Shown here in pieces: positions 5,405-45,084 of a DNA stretch of 64,000 bases. Position numbers and translations under genes: made by a program. The stretch's first letter is position 1. Every line of letters begins with the position of its first letter. The notes below the pieces were generated by a model, which had not been told where the DNA came from, did no database searches, and saw only the letters and a list, made by a program, of their open reading frames with translations. Source of the stretch: Escherichia phage teqdroes. The stretch is taken from sequence record NC_054932.1; one strand, 5' to 3'.

Positions 5405-8400
5405 TTATTCAACCCATTCAAATTTAACCGTTTTATTCACTGGGTCAGGAATAATGCGAACATTACCAATTCGTAAGAAATCACGAATAGTAAGATTACC
5501 CATTGTGGCATTATCAGATGGTAAAGCACCGATATCAGATGGTTGAGGAGGGTTACCTCCATCAAATACCTGAACAAAACTTGACCAAGAGTTTTTGGTT
5601 TTCTGCCATGTACGTGTCCAGCGAGTGGTACGCGCGTCTGGCGTCGTTGGATAAGTAATCCAATCTTGGTAAAGCGAATCAAGTGTGTTACCAAACTGAG
5701 TCAGTGTACCAGGAGATTTAACTTCTTCGCCACGTTCTAAGTATGGAAGCCCAGTCACTTCATTAGTTTTTTCAACCATTTTAAAATAACCCGGGAACTG
5801 GTTATAAGTGGCTGAATCGTTAATATCAATTGACCAGAATCCTACCGTATCAGATGTTGGCGCACGGGTATATAAATCAGATGTTTTAGTACCCTGAGAA
5901 CGAATTCTCGAGTTAACAGTTAAACCGCCTGAATTTATAGTAGCACCTTTGGCAATGATTAAGCTTTCACCAATTGTGACTTGACCGGATTGATTATTAA
6001 TTGATAATGGACGTAATCCATTAAATCCACCGGTCTGATCACCAGATGCAGTAAGCATAAAATATGTACTGCCGCCATCATTCCTGATAAAGAATCCATA
6101 ATCACCGTTTATTGCTCTGAAAGCATTTGCAGACTTGCTAATGAATTCACCATTGGCTGTAACTGAACTACCAAATGTTGCTACGCCATTCGTATTCAAT
6201 GAACCGGAAGCATTAACATTTATTGGCATTACAGTACCATTGATACTAAACGTTATATTCCCAGCTTTATTACGTTGAGAATAAAAGTGATTAGACGTTT
6301 CATCACCAACTTCAAATACCGTAGAACGTGTTGTATCTGAACCGCCACCGAACTGATTTCCCCAAACTCTGATAGTCATCGTCTGCACTGGGTTAGTTCC
6401 AGTTTGAGGTCCTTTCTCAAAAATCAGACAAGTTGCCGTTCCAGTATTAGAAATAGTTAATGTGCTGTTTGCCGAAACTGATCCGCCAAACGTAGCAGTA
6501 CTAGATGATACAAGAGGGGCACTCAGATTCGTTTGTTGGGTTAAGGTTAGTGAACCATTAACTGTCTGTGCAATATCCCTACGAATGAACTGGGATGAAT
6601 CTAGACCATCCAATAAATTACTATCTACAGCTTTTGCTTTTAACGGCAAATAATTTGCTAATACACGGTTTAATTCATATGGTGATACCGCATAGCTATT
6701 TTTCTCATACAGTTCTAAATCTTGGGTAGAACCGACTGTATCATTACCAACGAATGTAATTGAACCAGATGAAGTTTTAACAAAGCCTCTTATCGCAGTA
6801 GTAGCTGCCCAAGTAGGTTCACTCTGCACAATCCATTTTAAATTTTTTGGAGATACAGCAGTATTTGCTGACGTTCCAGTCACAGTTTCAGACTGGGTTG
6901 CAACTTTAATAACACCTTCCTGTGCTTCAGTAGATTTAGTACCTAAAAGCTTTTTAGGAGTTATTAAAACATTATCTAATGTTCCTGCAGCAGCTTCAAC
7001 TTGTGTAGCTACACGAAGTGTACCACGCTGTGTCTCATTTGCTTCAAGAATATTAAGGGTATAATGGTCCCAGAGAGTTCCTGATTCAACTAATCCAGAT
7101 AGAGCAACAACAGAAGTACGATCAGTACTATTAAATCTAGTTTTAATTTTTAATGGTGTAGAGATACGAGTATCGTCGACGCCTGCGTCGAATTCAACTT
7201 GTGTAGCAATTTCAGCTATACCACTTAAACTTTCAGTTGCTTTACGGTCATTTAAAGTTTTAGGAGTGACTGCACGAGTATAATCAGTTCCTGTATTAAC
7301 TTCACTTTGTGTAGCAATTTCAATTAAACCAATTCTTCCATCAGTTGATGTCTTTTTATGTAACGTTTCTGGCGTTACAACCGCATTTGCCCATCCTTCT
7401 TGGCTTTGTCCAGCAATTACTTCGCTTTCAACTGCTAAAATTACTGCACCTTGTTGTGTTGGAGTAGCTTTATACTGATCCAGAGCTTTAGGCGAAACAA
7501 CTAAATTATTAGTGTTTTTATTATAAACGTTTGTACCATTTAATTCACGACTAGAAGCTGGAGTAGCTCCTGCGGTAGATACAAAGGTTACAATACCAGA
7601 TAATGATTCAGAACCCTGACGAGCTTGAAGCTTTTTAGGAGTGATGATTGTAGTATCATCAGTACCTGCATTAGTTTCCTGTTGCGTAGCAATTTCAGCA
7701 ACACCTCTGCGAGTTTCTGTAGCAGTTCTTTCATTCAGCTTTTTAGGAGTGATGATAATATCGTCAGCAAAAGAGAATGTAGTATCCTGGTTTACTTGAG
7801 CAGTAGTTGCTATTCTTGCGATACCTCTACGAGTTTCTGTAGCAGTACGGTTAGCTAATGTTTCTGGAGTAATTGCTAATTCTTTTTGTGGAGAATTTTC
7901 TAAATCGGCATTAGCTTGAGCTTGTGTAGCTAAAGCAATTACGCCTAATCTTGCTCTAGTAGAATCATTCAAAGAGTCTACTCTTTCTACGGTTGGAACG
8001 TTTTGTTGTACAACCCAGTATTTTCCATCAGAATCTTCTATATAAGCAAGTTGTAAAACTGGAACATAATTAGTTTCACCGTTAAAAACTAATTCTTGAA
8101 CAGTTACCCATTCAGCTTCAGGTGGATACTCTGAACGTTTTGGGAACTGCAGCAATTGAACTGAAGAAGCAATTTTATCTTCACCGGCAGCTTTGATTTT
8201 AACTGTTTGTCCTTTTCGCATGTAATTCATGGAAATTTTGACAGTATCACCAACAGAAATATTAGTTGGAAGCTGAAGTTCAATTGTTTGGGTTGTTCCA
8301 TTATTCGCACCAAATACCATAACTTCTTCATTTGGACGAATATTAGAATTGGTTGTTATAATGCGTAAACGTGCTTTACTATCCCCGTCAAATAATCTCC

Positions 8401-9378: not shown

Positions 9379-10296
9379 ATGGATTTAGAAATGATGTTGG
9401 ATGAAGATTACAAAGAAGGAATTTGCTTTATTGACTTTAGTCAAATTGCGCTTTCAACTGCTTTAGTAAACTTCCCAGATAAAGAAAAAATTAATTTATC
9501 AATGGTTCGTCATTTGATATTGAACTCAATTAAGTTTAATGTCAAAAAAGCAAAAACGCTTGGATACACTAAAATTGTACTGTGTATTGATAACGCGAAA
9601 TCTGGATACTGGCGTCGTGATTTCGCTTATTATTATAAGAAAAACCGTGGAAAAGCACGAGAAGAATCTACTTGGGACTGGGAAGGTTATTTTGAATCCA
9701 GCCATAAAGTTATAGATGAATTGAAAGCTTATATGCCATACATTGTTATGGATATTGATAAGTATGAAGCGGATGACCACATTGCTGTTTTGGTTAAAAA
9801 GTTCTCTTTAGAAGGACACAAGATTTTAATCATTTCATCGGATGGTGACTTTACTCAACTTCACAAATACCCAAATGTTAAGCAATGGTCACCGATGCAC
9901 AAGAAATGGGTTAAAATTAAAAGCGGTTCTGCTGAAATTGACTGTATGACTAAAATCCTTAAAGGCGACAAAAAGGATAACGTTGCTTCAGTTAAAGTAC
10001 GATCTGACTTCTGGTTTACCAGAGTTGAAGGTGAACGAACTCCTTCAATGAAAACTTCAATCGTTGAAGCTATTGCTAATGACCGTGAGCAAGCTAAGGT
10101 GCTTCTCACAGAATCTGAATATAATCGTTATAAAGAAAATTTAGTTCTAATTGATTTTGATTATATTCCTGATAATATTGCTTCAAACATTGTGAATTAC
10201 TATAATTCATATAAATTACCACCGCGTGGCAAAATTTATTCATATTTTGTAAAAGCGGGTCTTTCTAAATTAACTAATAGCATTAATGAATTTTGA
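9379..10296 (+). CDS. rnh: RNase H (5'-3' exonuclease / flap endonuclease), 305 aa
   Basis: ATG at 9379 gives MDLEMMLDEDYKEGIC... recognised as T4 RNase H; ORF track start 9364 is an alternative TTG codon. Confidence 0.93.
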   Translation: MDLEMMLDEDYKEGICFIDFSQIALSTALVNFPDKEKINLSMVRHLILNSIKFNVKKAKTLGYTKIVLCIDNAKSGYWRRDFAYYYKKNRGKAREESTWDWEGYFESSHKVIDELKAYMPYIVMDIDKYEADDHIAVLVKKFSLEGHKILIISSDGDFTQLHKYPNVKQWSPMHKKWVKIKSGSAEIDCMTKILKGDKKDNVASVKVRSDFWFTRVEGERTPSMKTSIVEAIANDREQAKVLLTESEYNRYKENLVLIDFDYIPDNIASNIVNYYNSYKLPPRGKIYSYFVKAGLSKLTNSINEF

Positions 10297-10574: not shown

Positions 10575-10890
10575 TATTCGTCCGGTCGATGAGACCGGTC
10601 TTTCAGAAAAAGAACTTTCAATTAAGAAAGAAAAGGATGAAATAGCAAAGCTTCTTGATCGTCAAGAAAATGGATTTATTATTGAAAAAATGGTAGAAGA
10701 GTTTGGAATGAGTTATCTTGAAGCTACGACAGCATTCTTGGAAGAAAATTCTATTCCTGAAACTCAATTTGCTAAATTTATTCCTTCGGGTATAATTGAA
10801 AAAATTCAGTCAGAAGCTATTGACGAAAATCTTTTACGTCCTTCTGTTGTTCGTTGTGAAAAAACTAATACATTAGATTTTCTACTATGA
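10552..10890 (+). CDS. 33: Late transcription co-activator gp33, 112 aa
   Basis: ATG at 10552 gives MTQFSLNDIRPV...; 112 aa as in T4 gp33; track start 10543 is TTG. Confidence 0.88.
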   Translation: MTQFSLNDIRPVDETGLSEKELSIKKEKDEIAKLLDRQENGFIIEKMVEEFGMSYLEATTAFLEENSIPETQFAKFIPSGIIEKIQSEAIDENLLRPSVVRCEKTNTLDFLL

Positions 10891-11540
10891 TTAAACTCCG
10901 CATGCCTGCTGGTGGTGAAAGATACATTGATGGTAAATCAGTTTATAAATTATACTTAATGATAAAACAACATATGAATGGAAAGTATGATGTAATTAAG
11001 TATAATTGGTGCATGCGGGTGTCTGATGCCGCTTATCAAAAGCGAAGGGATAAGTATTTTTTCCAGAAGTTATCAGAAAAATATAAATTAAAGGAACTTG
11101 CTTTAATCTTTATAAGTAATTTGGTTGCTAACCAAGATGCTTGGATTGGTGACATCTCTGACGCTGATGCACTTGTGTTTTATCGTGAATATATCGGACG
11201 CTTAAAGCAAATTAAATTTAAGTTTGAAGAAGATATTCGCAACATTTATTATTTTAGTAAAAAAGTTGAAGTTTCTGCTTTTAAAGAAATTTTTGAATAT
11301 AATCCAAAAGTTCAATCAAGTTATATTTTTAAACTGCTTCAGTCGAACATAATTTCGTTTGAGACGTTTATCTTGCTTGATTCATTTTTAAATATAATTG
11401 ATAAACATGATGAACAGACTGATAATTTAGTCTGGAATAATTATTCTATAAAGTTAAAGGCTTATAGAAAAATTTTAAATATTGATTCACAGAAAGCTAA
11501 AAGTGTTTTCATTGAAACTGTGAAATCTTGTAAGTATTAA
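10887..11540 (+). CDS. 59: Helicase loader gp59, 217 aa
   Basis: ORF track; length and position upstream of gene 32 match T4 gp59. Confidence 0.9.
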   Translation: MIKLRMPAGGERYIDGKSVYKLYLMIKQHMNGKYDVIKYNWCMRVSDAAYQKRRDKYFFQKLSEKYKLKELALIFISNLVANQDAWIGDISDADALVFYREYIGRLKQIKFKFEEDIRNIYYFSKKVEVSAFKEIFEYNPKVQSSYIFKLLQSNIISFETFILLDSFLNIIDKHDEQTDNLVWNNYSIKLKAYRKILNIDSQKAKSVFIETVKSCKY

Positions 11541-11541
11541 T

Positions 11542-11565
11542 TGCTTATTATAAATAGATTATAAT
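11542..11565 (+). promoter_or_regulatory. MotA-dependent middle promoter (MotA box TGCTTA + TATAAT), overlapping a TATAAATA late-promoter motif at 11549-11556, upstream of gene 32
   Basis: TGCTTA 11542-11547, 12-bp gap, TATAAT 11560-11565; TATAAATA at 11549-11556. Confidence 0.6.
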
Positions 11566-11573
11566 TATCTCAC

Positions 11574-11642
11574 TGACCAGCTATGAGGTCATACATCGTC
11601 ATAGCACCAACTGTTAATTAAATTAAAAAGGAAATAAAAATG
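11574..11642 (+). promoter_or_regulatory. Gene 32 autoregulatory translational operator: 5' pseudoknot plus AU-rich unstructured region
   Basis: UGACC/GGUCA and GCUAUG/CAUAGC stems (11574-11605), then UUAAAUUAAAAAGGAAAUAAAAAUG; matches the known T4 gene 32 operator. Confidence 0.8.
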
Positions 11643-12548
11643 TTTAAACGTAAATCTACTGCTGAACTCGCTGCACAAATGGCTAAACTGGCTGGAAATA
11701 AAGGTGGTTTTTCTTCTGAAGATAAAGGCGAGTGGAAACTGAAACTCGACAATGCGGGTAACGGTCAAGCAGTAATTCGTTTTCTTCCGTCTAAAAATGA
11801 TGAACAAGCACCATTCGCAATTCTTGTAAATCACGGTTTCAAGAAAAATGGTAAATGGTATATTGAAAACTGTTCATCTACCCACGGTGATTACGATTCT
11901 TGCCCAGTATGTCAATACATTAGTAAAAATGATCTGTACAACACTGACAATAAAGAGTACAGTCTTGTTAAACGTAAAACTTCTTACTGGGCTAACATTC
12001 TTGTAGTAAAAGACCCAGCTGCTCCAGAAAACGAAGGTAAAGTATTTAAATACCGTTTCGGTAAGAAAATCTGGGATAAAATCAATGCAATGATTGCGGT
12101 TGATGTTGAAATGGGTGAAACTCCAGTTGATGTAACTTGTCCGTGGGAAGGTGCTAACTTTGTACTGAAAGTTAAACAAGTTTCTGGATTTAGTAACTAC
12201 GACGAATCTAAATTCCTGAATCAATCTGCGATTCCAAACATTGATGATGAATCTTTCCAGAAAGAACTGTTCGAACAAATGGTTGACCTTTCTGAAATGA
12301 CTTCTAAAGATAAATTCAAATCATTTGAAGAACTGAATACTAAATTCGGTCAAGTTATGGGAACTGCTGTGATGGGCGGTGCCGCAGCGACTGCTGCTAA
12401 GAAAGCTGATAAAGTTGCTGATGATTTGGATGCATTCAATGTTGATGACTTCAATACAAAAACTGAAGATGATTTTATGAGCTCAAGCTCTGGCAGTTCA
12501 TCTAGTGCTGATGACACGGACCTGGATGACCTTTTGAATGACCTTTAA
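11640..12548 (+). CDS. 32: ssDNA-binding protein gp32, 302 aa
   Basis: [50 protein letters not shown]... recognised as T4 gp32; Zn-binding Cys/His ([11 protein letters not shown]); acidic C-terminal tail. Confidence 0.97.
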
Positions 12549-12570
12549 TAGATTATATTATTAATTAATT

Positions 12571-12596
12571 GGGGACCCTAGAGGTCCCCTTTTTTA
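12571..12596 (+). terminator. Intrinsic terminator after gene 32
   Basis: GGGGACC-CUAGA-GGUCCCC followed by UUUUUU. Confidence 0.8.
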
Positions 12597-12622
12597 TTTC
12601 AAAAATTTTTTTCACAAAACAG

Positions 12623-12652
12623 TTTACATCCTTGTCCTTCCATGGTACTATA
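12623..12652 (+). promoter_or_regulatory. Early promoter (GTTTAC-N18-TACTAT)
   Basis: GTTTAC 12623-12628, TACTAT 12647-12652. Confidence 0.55.
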
Positions 12653-12694
12653 CAACTATCGGCAATACTGCTGATGATTAAAGAGGAAAATAAT

Positions 12695-12925
12695 ATGGCT
12701 AAAGTTGATATTGACATCGTTGATTTTGAATATATCGAAGAAATTATTCGTAATCGTTATCCTGAACTTAGCATCACAAGTATTCACGATGATCCCAATT
12801 ATTGCAATTTTTCTATTGTCATTGAAGGTCCTCTTGAAGACCTCACCCGCTTTATGGCTAATGAATATTGTGATGGCATGGATTCTGAAGACGCAGAATT
12901 TTACATGGGACTGATTGAACAATAA
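12695..12925 (+). CDS. Small hypothetical early protein, 76 aa (frd.3-like position)
   Basis: ATG at 12695 preceded by SD AAGAGGA; downstream of an early promoter; track ORF 12569 probably N-extended. Confidence 0.55.
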
Positions 12926-42537: not shown

Positions 42538-43657
42538 TTTTAACCTTAACTGGGTCTATTGTTTCCAGTTTCGTTGCATTAGTGAACATATAAAGATGAG
42601 TTACTGAATTATTATTTGATAATTCATGGATAACTTCATCAACGTAAAATTCTGTTTTAAATTGGTTTTTACTATCATTAAAAATAATTTTAACACCAGG
42701 AGTCAAGTTAAAATTACCGACAGTAGAACATTTAGCATAGCCGTCATATTGTGCCATAGTTTGAAGACGAATAGCTTCTTCATATCCATTCCTATAAGTC
42801 ATTTCAGAATAAGCACCTGACCTTGACACTACAATAGAGTTTTCGCCCTTTCCTGTAGTAATCATTGGCAGTGAAGAATCTAAAAATGAATGAGCATAGA
42901 TAGTAGCATTTTTCATTGGGTCACGTTTGTGAGGATTCGATTTAGTCAACCAAACAAAATCATATGCTAATGGGTATTTTAATTCTTGGACAAATTGACC
43001 TATTAAAGATGGCTCACCGACAATCATTGGATATGGTTCTTGATTTATCATCATATCATAGTCCATCATGTTAACTCCCATGATGTCTTGCCACACAAAT
43101 ACAAATTTGTCACTTCCCACAGCTAGAGCAACTTCTCTTACATATGACAAATAGTTTTCAAATGTGCTAGTCCATGGAATATCAGGAACATAAGCATTTA
43201 TAGCATTTATTGCTGGAGTTAATAATGTGCGATCTTGATAAATGACACCAAGCATTTCTTTTATAGATTCACCTGCATCAGGGAAAAATGGTCTACCAAA
43301 TTTAAGATTTTCTATAGAATGAATAGTTCCCAATTCAATAGCAATGATGTTATCGCCTTTTGAATCTACTGACACTGAAAAATGCTTACATCCATAAATT
43401 CGTGTTTTAACATTATTAATATCATTTGCATTAGCTACAGAAATCTGAATTATTTCATTTCCATCCATTTTTGTATGGATGTTTTTAGAATCATAAAACT
43501 GCAGCATTCCTTCATTTCGGCCATAAAGAGAATCCCGCATAGTTAATGTAGTAATAGTAGCAGCTAATTCAACAAATCTATTATTACTCCAAGCGTCGTA
43601 GCTATCAAATAATTTAACGCTGAGATTTGGATATCCGGGGCGTTGCAACATACTCAT
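42482..43657 (-). CDS. 27: Baseplate hub subunit gp27, 391 aa
   Basis: Length equals T4 gp27; synteny. Confidence 0.9.
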
Positions 43658-44406
43658 TATTGTTTATCCTTCTCAATCAGTTTTAATACGAATCCGCGCT
43701 CAGCAGGAATCATTTTCATTATTGAATTTAAGCTATAATTACTTTTTACGAGTGTGTGATTAATTTGATAAAAAGTAAATATCTCATCTGGGTTAACTAA
43801 TAGCTTAAACACGTCTACTATATCAGTGTATTTTTTAATGTACTTATTACAGCATGACATATGTAGAGTTAAATTAATAGGATTCATTGCATCGAGAATT
43901 TGTTCTAATGTTTCTATCTCGATGGCGTCAACGAGTTCTATTTGACTAGACTCGCTAATTTCCTTCCAATCATACCAAATTTCATCTACTTGAACAGAAT
44001 GAATATTTTCAGTAATCATCTTTGCTTTATTTTCATAAAACTCAGAAGGAAACTTTAATTTAATTTTAACATTAGCTACATCAAAAACAGGTTCCTTTAA
44101 TTCTTTTTGGTATATTTCAAATGGAACTGTCTTTTCTTTTTTACATTTTGGACATACGAATGTGACTGGTACTTTTGTTTTACCTATTGACCCTACAAAT
44201 ACCTGCAAAAATATAAATGGTTGCCAAGTCTTCGGATAGTCTCCAAAATAATCATCAATTAAATCAGTAATTATTTCTTTTTGTTCTTGTGGTGACCGAT
44301 GTTCTATATCGTTTCGAACTAACAAAAAATCTCGATAATCTTCTACCGTAAATGGTTTAAAACGATGAACACCATCTGGTAATTTACAACGAATAATGTT
44401 TGCCAT
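43657..44406 (-). CDS. 51: Baseplate hub assembly catalyst gp51, 249 aa
   Basis: Length equals T4 gp51; Cys pairs (CPKCKK...CC); divergent from gene 26. Confidence 0.88.
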
Positions 44407-44423: not shown

Positions 44424-44435
44424 TATTTATAAATA
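44424..44435. promoter_or_regulatory. Overlapping divergent late promoters for genes 51 (-) and 26 (+)
   Basis: Palindromic TATTTATAAATA gives TATAAATA on both strands; flanked by SD sequences on each side. Confidence 0.7.
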
Positions 44436-44457: not shown

Positions 44458-45084
44458 ATGTATGAATACAAATTTGATGTGAGAGTTGGTTCTAAAATAA
44501 TCAATTGTCGCGCATTCACGCTTAAAGAATATCTAGAACTTATTACTGCCAAAAATAATGGTTCTGTAGAAGTAATTGTTAAAAAGCTAATCAAAGACTG
44601 CACAAATGCAAAAGATTTAAACCGCCAAGAATCAGAACTATTGTTGATTCATTTATGGGCACATTCTCTCGGTGAAGTTAATCACGAAAACTCCTGGAAG
44701 TGCACCTGTGGAACTGAAATATCAACCCATATAAATCTATTACATACACAAATAGATGCACCAGAAGACCTCTGGTATACACTGGGTGACATTAAAATTA
44801 AATTCCGATACCCTAAAATTTTTGATGATAAAAATATAGCCCACATGATAGTATCATGTATAGAAACGATTCACGCTAACGGGGAAAGCATTCCAGTTGA
44901 AGACTTAAATGAAAAAGAGCTGGAAGATTTATATTCTATCATCACAGAGTCAGATATTGTAGCTATAAAAGATATGCTTTTAAAGCCTACTGTTTATTTG
45001 GCTGTTCCAATTAAGTGTCCAGAGTGTGGAAAAACCCATGCTCACGTAATAAGAGGCCTCAAAGAGTTCTTTGAGTTACTATAA
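44458..45084 (+). CDS. 26: Baseplate hub subunit gp26, 208 aa
   Basis: Length equals T4 gp26; synteny 51/26/25. Confidence 0.88.

Follow-up and report, generated by a model that had tools for sequence, protein, structure and literature searches.

Gene 32 control region of Escherichia phage teqdroes: a T2-type combination of promoter motifs, pseudoknot and operator

Which elements control gene 32 in Escherichia phage teqdroes (NC_054932.1), and how many of the signals legible in the short stretch before its start codon are genuine? A first-pass annotation had assigned a middle promoter, a late-promoter motif, a pseudoknot and an autoregulatory operator to positions 11541-11642 of the 64,000-nt stretch that we analyzed, hereafter the window. 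Our preferred answer, which we hold at a probability of roughly 0.88, is that 11541-11642 constitutes a T2-type gene 32 control region, in which promoters are joined to autoregulation through a pseudoknot and an operator. The control region is real and belongs to an already known system. It is bordered by the following features:

10887-11540, plus strand: gene 59 (helicase loader), from the open reading frame list; database matches are annotated as DNA helicase loader
11640-12548, plus strand: gene 32, an open reading frame for gp32 (single-stranded DNA-binding protein, 302 aa)
12571-12589, plus strand: intrinsic terminator 3' of gene 32, GGGGACC-loop-GGTCCCC and then a run of Ts

Sequence comparison identified the region. 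The intergenic stretch between genes 59 and 32 (11541-11639) shows 100% identity to T2 (AP018813), and across the 161 nt compared there are two mismatches, both located at the 3' end of gene 59 and none in the regulatory region. Since the intergenic identity is complete, the pseudoknot within it is the T2 gene 32 pseudoknot solved by NMR; the T2/T6 structure (PDB 2TPK) consists of two coaxially stacked helices (PMC3014915). Base for base, the leader is that of T2 gene 32, and its initial reading as a pseudoknot plus operator was correct. The layout of gene 59 likewise matches T2, and the MotA-box-like element described below begins within the gene's stop codon (TAA, 11538-11540). The phage is a Tequatrovirus, and the gp32 of the window is 98-100% identical to Tequatrovirus gp32, including that of T4, and a terminator after gene 32 is conserved (PMC1524935). 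Two minus-strand open reading frames (11589-11834 and 11618-11752) lie antisense to gene 32 without support and were not counted as genes.

The candidate promoter elements are as follows:

11374-11398, plus strand: middle promoter TGCTTGA-N12-TATAAT, homologue of T4 PsegG, inside the 3' end of gene 59
11539-11548, plus strand: MotA-box-like AATTGCTTAT, matching 8/10 consensus positions, with an intact TGCTT core at 11542-46
11549-11556, plus strand: gp55-type late motif TATAAATA, an exact match, intergenic, 84 nt from the AUG
11560-11565, plus strand: sigma-70 -10 hexamer TATAAT, perfect, separated from the MotA box by an 11-bp spacer

A MotA box, a TATAAT and a late motif embedded between them had been claimed from the sequence, and all three are present. 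The consensus MotA box is WWWTGCTTtA, centred near -30, with the -10 element spaced at 12 +/- 1 bp (PMC2988021). At 11 bp, the spacer is the shortest that this range allows, and the last two box positions deviate from the consensus, with AT instead of tA; in the mapped T4 P32 promoter this box reads ATTGCTTAc. As the late motif lies inside the middle-promoter spacer, the two promoters overlap physically. The pattern TGCTT-N13-15-TATAAT occurs 6 times in the window against 0.40 expected, a count reached in 0/100 shuffles. Its matches at 7040, 10100 and 11374 agree to the nucleotide with the mapped starts of T4 P34i, PdsbA(2) and PsegG, and a looser match at 10179 agrees equally with the mapped PdsbA start; no homologue of T4 P32 occurs in the 64-kb window. 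Transcription from the homologous mapped T4 promoters starts 7 nt after the -10 element, and for teqdroes we infer a proximal MotA-dependent middle promoter with a putative start at A11572, 2 nt 5' of the pseudoknot. The portion of the genome in the window does not include motA; an annotated MotA gene is present in T2, whose control region is identical. The late-promoter motif occupies positions -13 to -6 (PMC1524935), and a putative gp55-dependent late start is predicted at about 11562.

Could the proximal motifs (TGCTTA...TATAAT and TATAAATA) be non-functional coincidences of AT-rich DNA, with a real pseudoknot and operator that receive their mRNA from RNase E processing and upstream promoters alone, such as the PsegG homologue at 11374-98, PdsbA and others? 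The region is indeed AT-rich, and a generic sigma-70/terminator scan, which is uninformative for phage-specific promoters, returned 9 promoter matches against 9.3 expected, that is, chance level. As a lone motif, TATAAATA is only about 2-fold enriched (18 copies against 9.3 expected), and a loose MotA pattern ending in TAnnnT (24 against 14.9 expected) was so barely enriched that it was not used as evidence. Furthermore, the conserved upstream middle promoters could supply gene 32 mRNA, and in T4 RNase E is known to process the transcript upstream of the pseudoknot (PMC3014915). We nevertheless consider a coincidence improbable. The stringent pattern exceeds expectation 15-fold, and of its 5 other matches at least 3 are mapped T4 promoters. 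Although the window is ~95% coding, 15 of the 18 TATAAATA copies are intergenic, and these lie mostly 15-35 nt upstream of co-oriented open reading frames. TATAAATA has also been kept beside the pseudoknot, at most 32 nt upstream of it, in five lineages with otherwise diverged flanks (the window/T2 type, Mosigvirus, Marfa-like, Cronus and CHI14/EcS1). T4 reportedly needs proximal middle and late gene 32 promoters, which are embedded in segG (PMC2988022), and this phage offers no other proximal promoter candidates. The reading of the stacked motifs as promoters is thus plausible, statistically well supported and in agreement with PMC2988022, while the exact transcription starts are predictions for this phage.

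A very improbable variant takes the TATAAT at 11560-65 as the -10 of a host-type early sigma-70 promoter that has a -35 and does not depend on MotA: the hexamer is perfect, but no acceptable -35 hexamer occurs at 16-18 bp, the generic scan lists no plus-strand promoter here, and a TGCTT core stands at MotA-box distance instead. A promoter-like site on the minus strand (11592-11564) is at chance level.

Downstream of the predicted starts, the leader contains the elements of an H-type pseudoknot:

11574-11578, plus strand: stem 1, 5' strand UGACC (pseudoknot scan, covariation)
11579, plus strand: loop 1, one nucleotide (A), unchanged in 11/11 pseudoknot types
11580-11586, plus strand: stem 2, 5' strand GCUAUGA (pseudoknot scan, covariation)
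11587-11591, plus strand: stem 1, 3' strand GGUCA (pseudoknot scan, covariation)
11592-11598, plus strand: loop 2, UACAUCG, 7 nt (3-7 nt in relatives)
11599-11605, plus strand: stem 2, 3' strand UCAUAGC (pseudoknot scan, covariation)

The structure (11574-11605) spans -66 to -35 relative to the gene 32 AUG. The 3' strand of stem 1 directly adjoins the 5' strand of stem 2, and a loop 1 of 1 nt with a junction of 0 nt provides the geometry for coaxial stacking; the evidence for stacking is the NMR work that PMC3014915 cites. Scanning both strands of the 64 kb with a strict H-type pseudoknot scanner turned up this structure as the sole all-Watson-Crick match. Applied to distinct gp32 leaders, the same scanner matched 26/124, at -84 to -29, against 1/124 and 0/124 in controls. 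A relaxed-geometry scan gave 11/116 matches against 14/116 in the reverse-complement control and was put to no quantitative use. Rfam searches of 11000-12800 and 11540-11660 at permissive thresholds produced no gene 32 pseudoknot family. The leader matches that did appear, to DUF2815 RNA (19 bits) and, on the minus strand, to sR9, are sub-threshold and rest on A/U-rich sequence. Membership in DUF2815 RNA (RF03084) was rejected, as the score of 19.1 bits falls short of the gathering score (41.2) and the structural part misfits: the hairpin pair in the alignment is non-canonical and the A/U-rich tail alone matches. The likeness is between this 3' tail of RF03084 (UAAaguUAAAAAGGaAaUAauaaAUG) and the operator and Shine-Dalgarno stretch of gene 32.

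Covariation had been named beforehand as a possible refutation of the pseudoknot. In a set of 11 distinct pseudoknot sequences, drawn from about 9 lineages at genus level, both stems proved strongly supported across relatives. Overall, 96.2% of cells are paired, against 25-49% in slid controls, with 100% in stem 2 and 90.6% in stem 1. Double-sided compensatory changes occur in 8/12 pairs (4/5 in stem 1, 4/7 in stem 2), and the covariation score of 0.708 compares with 0.227 for shuffles, 0/500 of which scored as high. Stem 1 is found as UGACC/GGUCA, AUGCC/GGCAU, AAGCU/AGCUU and ACCU/AGGU, with its outermost pair missing in 5/11 sequence types. The pairing initially proposed for the leader therefore stands, with the correction that stem 2 has 7 bp and not 6. 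That only the stem 2 hairpin (11580-86/11599-11605) forms, with an incidental UGACC/GGUCA complementarity, is a highly unlikely reading that sequence covariation already contradicts: a nested-only minimum-free-energy fold does give just this hairpin (z-score -1.38, unremarkable), and the outermost stem 1 pair is not universal, but stem 1 shows the compensatory changes and pairing frequency given above and the NMR structure of the exact T2 sequence contains both helices (PMC3014915). A weak z-score is expected of a nested-only fold when the structure is a pseudoknot, and this fold, which also recovers the stem 2 helix, was used solely to assess the unpairedness of the operator.

The covarying pseudoknot is common to at least nine lineages, with Escherichia, Klebsiella, Serratia and Erwinia as hosts. 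Mosigvirus leaders (the RB69 genus) carry it. It is possible that Yersinia and Acinetobacter phages, which lie outside the covariation set, have a variant of expanded geometry. The gp32 leader scan did not detect the pseudoknot in Karamvirus-like, Krischvirus, Gaprivervirus or Aeromonas-phage leaders; the pseudoknot-less group L006-L012 is the Karamvirus-like one.

The pseudoknot could lie close to the 5' end of every gene 32 transcript. In addition to the promoters, one further feature is relevant here:

11557-11567, plus strand: candidate RNase E sites GAUUA (11557-61) and AAUUA (11563-67), of RAUUW type, overlapping the -10 element

RAUUW is the RNase E consensus, and it carries low information in AT-rich sequence, so these remain candidate sites. 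The gene 32 mRNA of T4 is cleaved by RNase E at -71, a cleavage conserved in 5 relatives (PMC3014915); the T4 sequence there reads GA before the cut and AUUAU after it, 4 nt 5' of the pseudoknot. Gene 32 has middle and late promoters, both of which lie within segG in T4 (PMC2988022). In teqdroes, the PsegG homologue has a predicted start at A11405 and equals T4 at 53/54 positions around the mapped start 148678 (PMC2988021 Table 1); with segG missing here, it would feed gene 32. We propose that during early and middle infection upstream transcripts, including those from A11405, reach gene 32, and that the proximal MotA/AsiA-dependent promoter (AATTGCTTAT-N11-TATAAT) would also supply the gene from A11572. 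In late infection, the nested TATAAATA is predicted to start transcription at about 11562. Longer transcripts would probably be trimmed by host RNase E at the AU-rich RAUUW motifs, the processing site being a prediction for this phage. With starts and trimming at these sites, all mRNA species would thus begin a few nucleotides 5' of the pseudoknot. Comparison of relatives shows a recurrent placement of promoters in which predicted transcript starts fall at the pseudoknot or immediately in front of it. Selection may have acted on promoter placement and RNase E processing to put gene 32 mRNA 5' ends 0-4 nt before it.

Immediately 3' of the pseudoknot lies the translational operator:

11606-11639, plus strand: A/U-rich operator, 34 nt (composition, repeats and fold prediction)

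The operator is 82% A+U, which ranks at the 98th percentile among 34-nt windows, and is predicted to be unpaired by the nested-only fold. It contains the units UUAA (11614-17), UUAAA (11618-22) and UUAAAAA (11623-29), followed by the Shine-Dalgarno GGA at 11630-32 and the AUG at 11640. An AU-rich operator with repeated UUAAA units had been described from the sequence; the operator is there, with only two units of strict UUAAA. UUAA(A) units are present in the operators of every lineage. Binding of gp32 to its own leader and repression of its own translation are established for T4 and RB69 (PMC535899), and a model in which a pseudoknot and a UUAAA/UAAA operator support nucleation and cooperative gp32 binding has been presented in the same paper (see also PMC3014915 for pseudoknot, operator and nucleation). 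By virtue of the T2 identity, the same binding and repression are likely to operate here. The mRNA would begin with a 5-bp stem 1, the loop A, a directly stacked 7-bp stem 2 and a 7-nt loop 2, ahead of the operator. Once there is more free gp32 than single-stranded DNA to take it up, the protein would nucleate at the pseudoknot, coat the operator cooperatively in the 3' direction, occlude the ribosome-binding site and thereby repress its own translation. A parallel drawn in PMC3014915 is E. coli rpsO (S15), an autoregulated mRNA whose translational operator likewise contains a pseudoknot. There is no sequence or evolutionary relation between rpsO and the gene 32 leader, and, going by a title cited in PMC3014915, S15 is said to trap the ribosome on its mRNA, which differs from the cooperative coating of an unstructured leader in gene 32.

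A close known system is the T4 operator, which belongs to the same gene and has the same architecture (a pseudoknot from -67 to -40 with UUAAA/UAAA repeats), as the proposed comparison with the T4 leader bore out. T4 and the window have in common stem 2 (GCUAUGA/UCAUAGC), the one-nucleotide loop A and the ACCAACUGUUAAUUAAAUUAAA... tail. They differ in stem 1, which in T4 is UGCC/GGUA (4 bp, one of them a G-U pair), in loop 2, which is AAGUG in T4, and in the operator, which has one UUAAA unit more in T4. The segG reading frame of T4 overlaps the 5' half of the pseudoknot, whereas the window phage lacks segG. Within segG, ~90-140 nt upstream of the pseudoknot, lie the T4 gene 32 middle promoter (start 148057) and TATAAATA; in the window, by contrast, the promoters are packed into a 25-bp stack. 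The predicted promoters resemble the T4 middle and late classes in the TGCTT core, 11-bp spacer, TATAAT, exact TATAAATA and canonical spacing, and deviate from them in the nesting of the late motif and the two off-consensus MotA-box positions. RB69 (Mosigvirus) has a pseudoknot of the same geometry as the window, AUACC-A-GCUACGA-GGUAU-AAGUG-UCGUAGC, in which compensatory changes give both stems a different sequence. It also has an A/U-rich UAAA/UUAAA tail and an upstream TATAAATA and MotA-like promoter, but its operator is longer (45-54 nt) and its promoters are tandem and not nested. The predicted late start of RB69 is the second pseudoknot nucleotide, within one base of the 5' edge. The location of the T4 promoters inside segG, the PsegG homologue, the RNase E motifs and the AACUGU motif had not featured in the first-pass annotation.

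The last of these lies within the operator:

11609-11614, plus strand: AACUGU, found by enrichment in leaders

AACUGU occurs in 31/35 non-redundant leaders of gp32 with at least 55% identity, at a density ~38-fold above genome background. It is strand-specific and, among the 80 open reading frame leaders of the window, essentially limited to gene 32. In pseudoknot-bearing leaders, AACUGU lies directly 3' of the pseudoknot (CACCAACUGUUAA). Pseudoknot-less Karamvirus-like leaders have 2-4 copies, spaced at 10-13 nt when there are three or four, which overlap the final codons of gene 59 in three different reading phases. An AACUGU element of the gene 32 leader was not found in the searchable literature, and this gene-32-leader-specific motif may be a new observation. 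Tentatively, and with more doubt than confidence, we suggest that AACUGU is a sequence-specific determinant or nucleation site for gp32 on its own mRNA, one that predates the pseudoknot and extends beyond its range.

Taken as a whole, our work re-identifies a classic system, in which the elements themselves, the T2 identity, the two-stem covariation, and the enrichment and conserved placement of promoter motifs were observed directly, and gp32 binding, repression and RNase E cleavage are known from the T4, T2 and RB69 literature. Its worth is mainly that of a positive control: reading of the raw sequence alone sufficed to recover a genuine control region with several layers. Perhaps the gene 32 leader is still the sole viral pseudoknot that serves translational autoregulation (PMC3014915), and the comparative data on its spread add modest new context. 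If transcript 5' ends are indeed selected to fall at its edge, the pseudoknot would be a 5'-terminal stabilizer of the mRNA as well as part of the operator. How gp32 recognizes its own mRNA was described as still unclear in the RB69 study (PMC535899), and AACUGU, should its proposed role be true, would offer a testable candidate for this recognition.

The first-pass annotation had described stacked promoters, a pseudoknot and an autoregulatory operator upstream of gene 32, and a check of the sequence recovered all of these elements inside the 99-nt gap between genes 59 and 32. They are listed here together with the two genes and the terminator:

10887-11540, open reading frame of gene 59 (helicase loader)
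11539-48, MotA-box-like AATTGCTTAT
11549-56, late motif TATAAATA
11560-65, TATAAT
11574-78 and 11587-91, pseudoknot stem 1 (UGACC with GGUCA)
11580-86 and 11599-11605, pseudoknot stem 2 (GCUAUGA with UCAUAGC)
11606-39, A/U-rich tail containing UUAA, UUAAA, UUAAAAA and the Shine-Dalgarno sequence GGA
11640-12548, open reading frame of gene 32 (302 aa), 99 nt downstream of gene 59
12571-12589, strong intrinsic terminator downstream of gene 32

Two details required adjustment. Both stems are present, but stem 2 comprises 7 bp rather than 6, and while the A/U-rich tail does carry the repeated units, only two are strictly UUAAA. The window is Tequatrovirus DNA, and over the 601 nt around this region several T4-like coliphage genomes match it at 100% identity. 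The 59-32 intergenic region matches phage T2 (AP018813) at every base, and T2 shares the 59-32 gene order. The pseudoknot is therefore that of T2 gene 32, for which a review (PMC3014915) cites an NMR structure in which two helices stack coaxially. Judged by sequence, the system is the already known T2 gene 32 leader, and the structure and identity of the pseudoknot and operator are certain. T4, in contrast, carries the homing-endonuclease gene segG between genes 59 and 32, which this phage lacks. The 5' strand of stem 1 is the exact point where homology to T4 stops; T4 stem 1 reads UGCC/GGUA in place of UGACC/GGUCA, and the T4 operator has one UUAAA unit more.

Covariation across relatives had been named beforehand as the analysis that could refute the pairings. 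We aligned 11 distinct pseudoknot sequences, writing the knot with two bracket types: the T2 sequence found here, T4, Mosigvirus AV112, Klebsiella phage Marfa, a Marfa-like variant, Erwinia phage Cronus, Escherichia phage EcS1, Serratia phage CHI14, a Klebsiella K65 phage, Escherichia phage VR5 and one metagenomic contig. Both stems proved to be backed by compensatory changes, which were double-sided in 8 of the 12 pairs (four per stem). Standard pairs occupied 96.2% of cells, compared to 25-49% when partners were slid by 1-3 columns, and the covariation score of 0.708 (0.227 in shuffled alignments) was reached in none of 500 shuffles. Stem 1 varies among relatives from UGACC/GGUCA to AUGCC/GGCAU, AAGCU/AGCUU and ACCU/AGGU, the last unique to VR5, and its outermost pair is the only optional one. 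A hairpin-only reading without a pseudoknot is ruled out by the covariation.

We also scanned for this geometry with strict limits: a stem 1 of 4-6 bp and a stem 2 of 7 bp with no junction nucleotide, a single nucleotide in loop 1, and 2-8 nt in loop 2. On both strands of the window, the gene 32 element was the only match built entirely of Watson-Crick pairs; matches containing G-U pairs occurred at the shuffle rate of about 10 per shuffle. Among 124 distinct gp32 leaders collected from IMG/VR, JGI metagenomes and GenBank phages, the pseudoknot was present in 26, its 3' end always 29-54 nt from the AUG, compared to 1/124 control coding sequences and 0/124 reverse complements. Carriers of the T4-class pseudoknot are Tequatrovirus, Mosigvirus, Winklervirus, Marfa-like and K65-like Klebsiella phages, Cronus, EcS1 and VR5. 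The scanners detected no pseudoknot in Karamvirus-like, Gaprivervirus, Krischvirus, Tulanevirus, Biquartavirus and more distant leaders, in agreement with the published remark that RB49 is without a gene 32 pseudoknot (PMC535899; PMC3014915). A relaxed-geometry scan, whose control was noisy, identified a candidate at the same position in Yersinia phages fHe-Yen9-01 and TG1 (-90 to -42) and Acinetobacter phage KARL-1 (-91 to -39). It combines an 8-bp stem 1 of differing sequence (ACAAUGAA/UUCAUUGU versus CUCUUAUA/UAUAAGAG), a 5-nt loop 1, a 7-bp stem 2 (GGUGUAG or GGUGUAC), a 4-nt junction and a long loop 2, and in KARL-1 it is flanked by TATAAATA and a TTGCTTTA box on its 5' side and by ACCAACUGUU on its 3' side. 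This element is possibly an expanded version of the T4-class pseudoknot.

In every pseudoknot-bearing lineage, 27-54 nt of 74-88% A+U with UUAA(A)/UAAA units separate the pseudoknot from the AUG. The operator of this phage (34 nt, 82% A+U) lies at the 98th percentile of 34-nt windows and is predicted to be unpaired. Both properties agree with the published model in which gp32 nucleates at the pseudoknot and then spreads cooperatively to cover the ribosome-binding site as well as the UUAAA/UAAA region; on T4 RNA, the stretch protected by T4 gp32 runs from G(+3) to U(-70) (PMC535899). From the identity to T2, we infer that gp32 would bind and repress this leader as well. Among near-identical Tequatroviruses the number of UUAAA units ranges from 2 to 4 (two here and in leader L004, three in T4, four in L086), which suggests that the gp32 binding lattice is polymorphic in length through a slippage-type process; in L087, one unit is changed to UUAAG.

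A separate motif, AACUGU, occurs in 31/35 non-redundant gene 32 leaders (gp32 identity of at least 55%), among them L006-L012, L014, L020, L022 and L186. Here it is found at 11609-11614, and also at 11516-11521 inside gene 59. Its density in leaders is 0.0189 per nt, versus 0.0016 in gp32 coding sequence (~12-fold) and 0.0005 genome-wide (~38-fold). It is strand-specific, the reverse complement having 0 occurrences, and is present in only 2/80 ORF leaders of the window. Pseudoknot-less leaders carry 2-4 copies that overlap the last gene 59 codons and stop region in three reading phases. A literature search found no link of ACUGU with gp32 or gene 32, and we regard AACUGU as a candidate specificity element. 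An Rfam match to DUF2815 RNA at 11586-11642 (+) was sub-threshold (19.1 bits versus 41.2) and driven by the tail UUAAAAAGGAAAUAAAAAUG.

The gene 32 proximal promoters, middle and late, are probable. The middle-promoter consensus is WWWTGCTTtA, 12 +/- 1 bp and TAtaaT, with the -10 element at -12 to -7 (PMC2988021; PMC1524935); here AATTGCTTAT and TATAAT are separated by 11 bp. TGCTT-N13-15-TATAAT has 6 matches in the window versus 0.40 expected, a number reached in 0/100 shuffles, and the predicted promoter upstream of gene 32 that the annotation had proposed belongs to this enriched pattern. Several matches, one of them to a looser pattern, correspond to mapped T4 promoters, and two others are listed with them:

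7040-7065 (+), P34i homologue, agreeing to the nucleotide with the mapped T4 promoter
10100-10125 (+), PdsbA(2) homologue, agreeing to the nucleotide
10179-10203 (+), PdsbA homologue, a looser match, agreeing to the nucleotide
11374-11398 (+), PsegG homologue in the gene 59 3' end, 53/54 positions as in T4, predicted start A11405
45483-45508 (+) and 9632-9657 (-), stringent MotA-box/TATAAT matches by pattern, assigned to no known promoter

The four homologues are 52-54/54 identical to T4 around mapped starts that lie exactly 7 nt past the -10 element, so the pattern is highly predictive. No homologue of the mapped T4 promoter P32 (box ATTGCTTAc; start at 148057 within segG) exists in the window, the correspondence of 29/54 being at chance level; according to a review on mobile elements, insertion of segG displaced the promoters of gene 32, which came to lie within the endonuclease gene (PMC2988022). 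With neither segG nor a P32 homologue, the intergenic element is the only proximal middle-promoter candidate, with a predicted start at A11572, 2 nt 5' of the pseudoknot. Since the phage lacks segG, the PsegG homologue must, on its predicted start, be a second middle promoter feeding gene 32 through a leader of ~235 nt. In VR5 (leader L170), an annotated homing-endonuclease gene lies directly 5' of gene 32, parallel to T4 segG, and a middle promoter, AAATGCTTAA-N12-TATAAT, sits between it and the pseudoknot; endonuclease genes may have inserted recurrently at the 59-32 junction.

T4 late promoters are defined by TATAAATA at -13 to -6 (PMC1524935). The motif is only 2-fold enriched genome-wide (18 versus 9.3 expected), but 15/18 copies fall between genes although ~95% of the window is coding, and most lie 15-35 nt 5' of a co-oriented ORF. 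The exact copy at 11549, predicted to act as a promoter and nested between MotA box and TATAAT as first described, is likewise intergenic and co-oriented; its 84-nt leader is unusually long, and pseudoknot and operator take up exactly this space. In a palindrome elsewhere, TATTTATAAATA (44424-44435), TATAAATA motifs of the two strands overlap. The ORFs downstream of them, 18 and 23 nt away, are divergent (43657-44406, -; 44458-45084, +), an arrangement that resembles two late promoters placed back to back.

Five lineages whose flanks are otherwise diverged have kept TATAAATA upstream of the pseudoknot, at a distance of no more than 32 nt. The Marfa lineage also nests the late motif between a MotA-like box (TGCTA) and TATAAT, VR5 has a near-perfect middle promoter upstream of gene 32, and Mosigvirus places middle and late promoters in tandem rather than nested. 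Promoter stacking would therefore be a recurring arrangement, not a one-genome accident. Overall, the first interpretation of the locus is supported.

All T4 gene 32 transcripts are cleaved by RNase E at -71, a site conserved in five relatives (PMC3014915), which lies within GA|AUUAU, 4 nt 5' of stem 1. GAUUA and AAUUA at 11557-67, overlapping the -10 element, are consistent with candidate RNase E sites, if weakly. The 3' end of TATAAATA is 4-5 nt upstream of the pseudoknot in three lineages, Mosigvirus (L184/L185), Cronus (L022) and CHI14, EcS1 and Virsaitis27 (L018/L019/L187), and their predicted late start is nucleotide 1 or 2 of stem 1. Because the processed end documented in T4, the middle start predicted here and these predicted late starts all fall 0-4 nt upstream of the pseudoknot, we infer that a 5'-terminal pseudoknot is under selection. 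It possibly adds to the stability of gene 32 mRNA, which is unusual, with a half-life of 15-30 min (PMC3014915). Late gene 32 mRNA of the three lineages named above would, given the predicted starts, have the pseudoknot directly at its 5' end.
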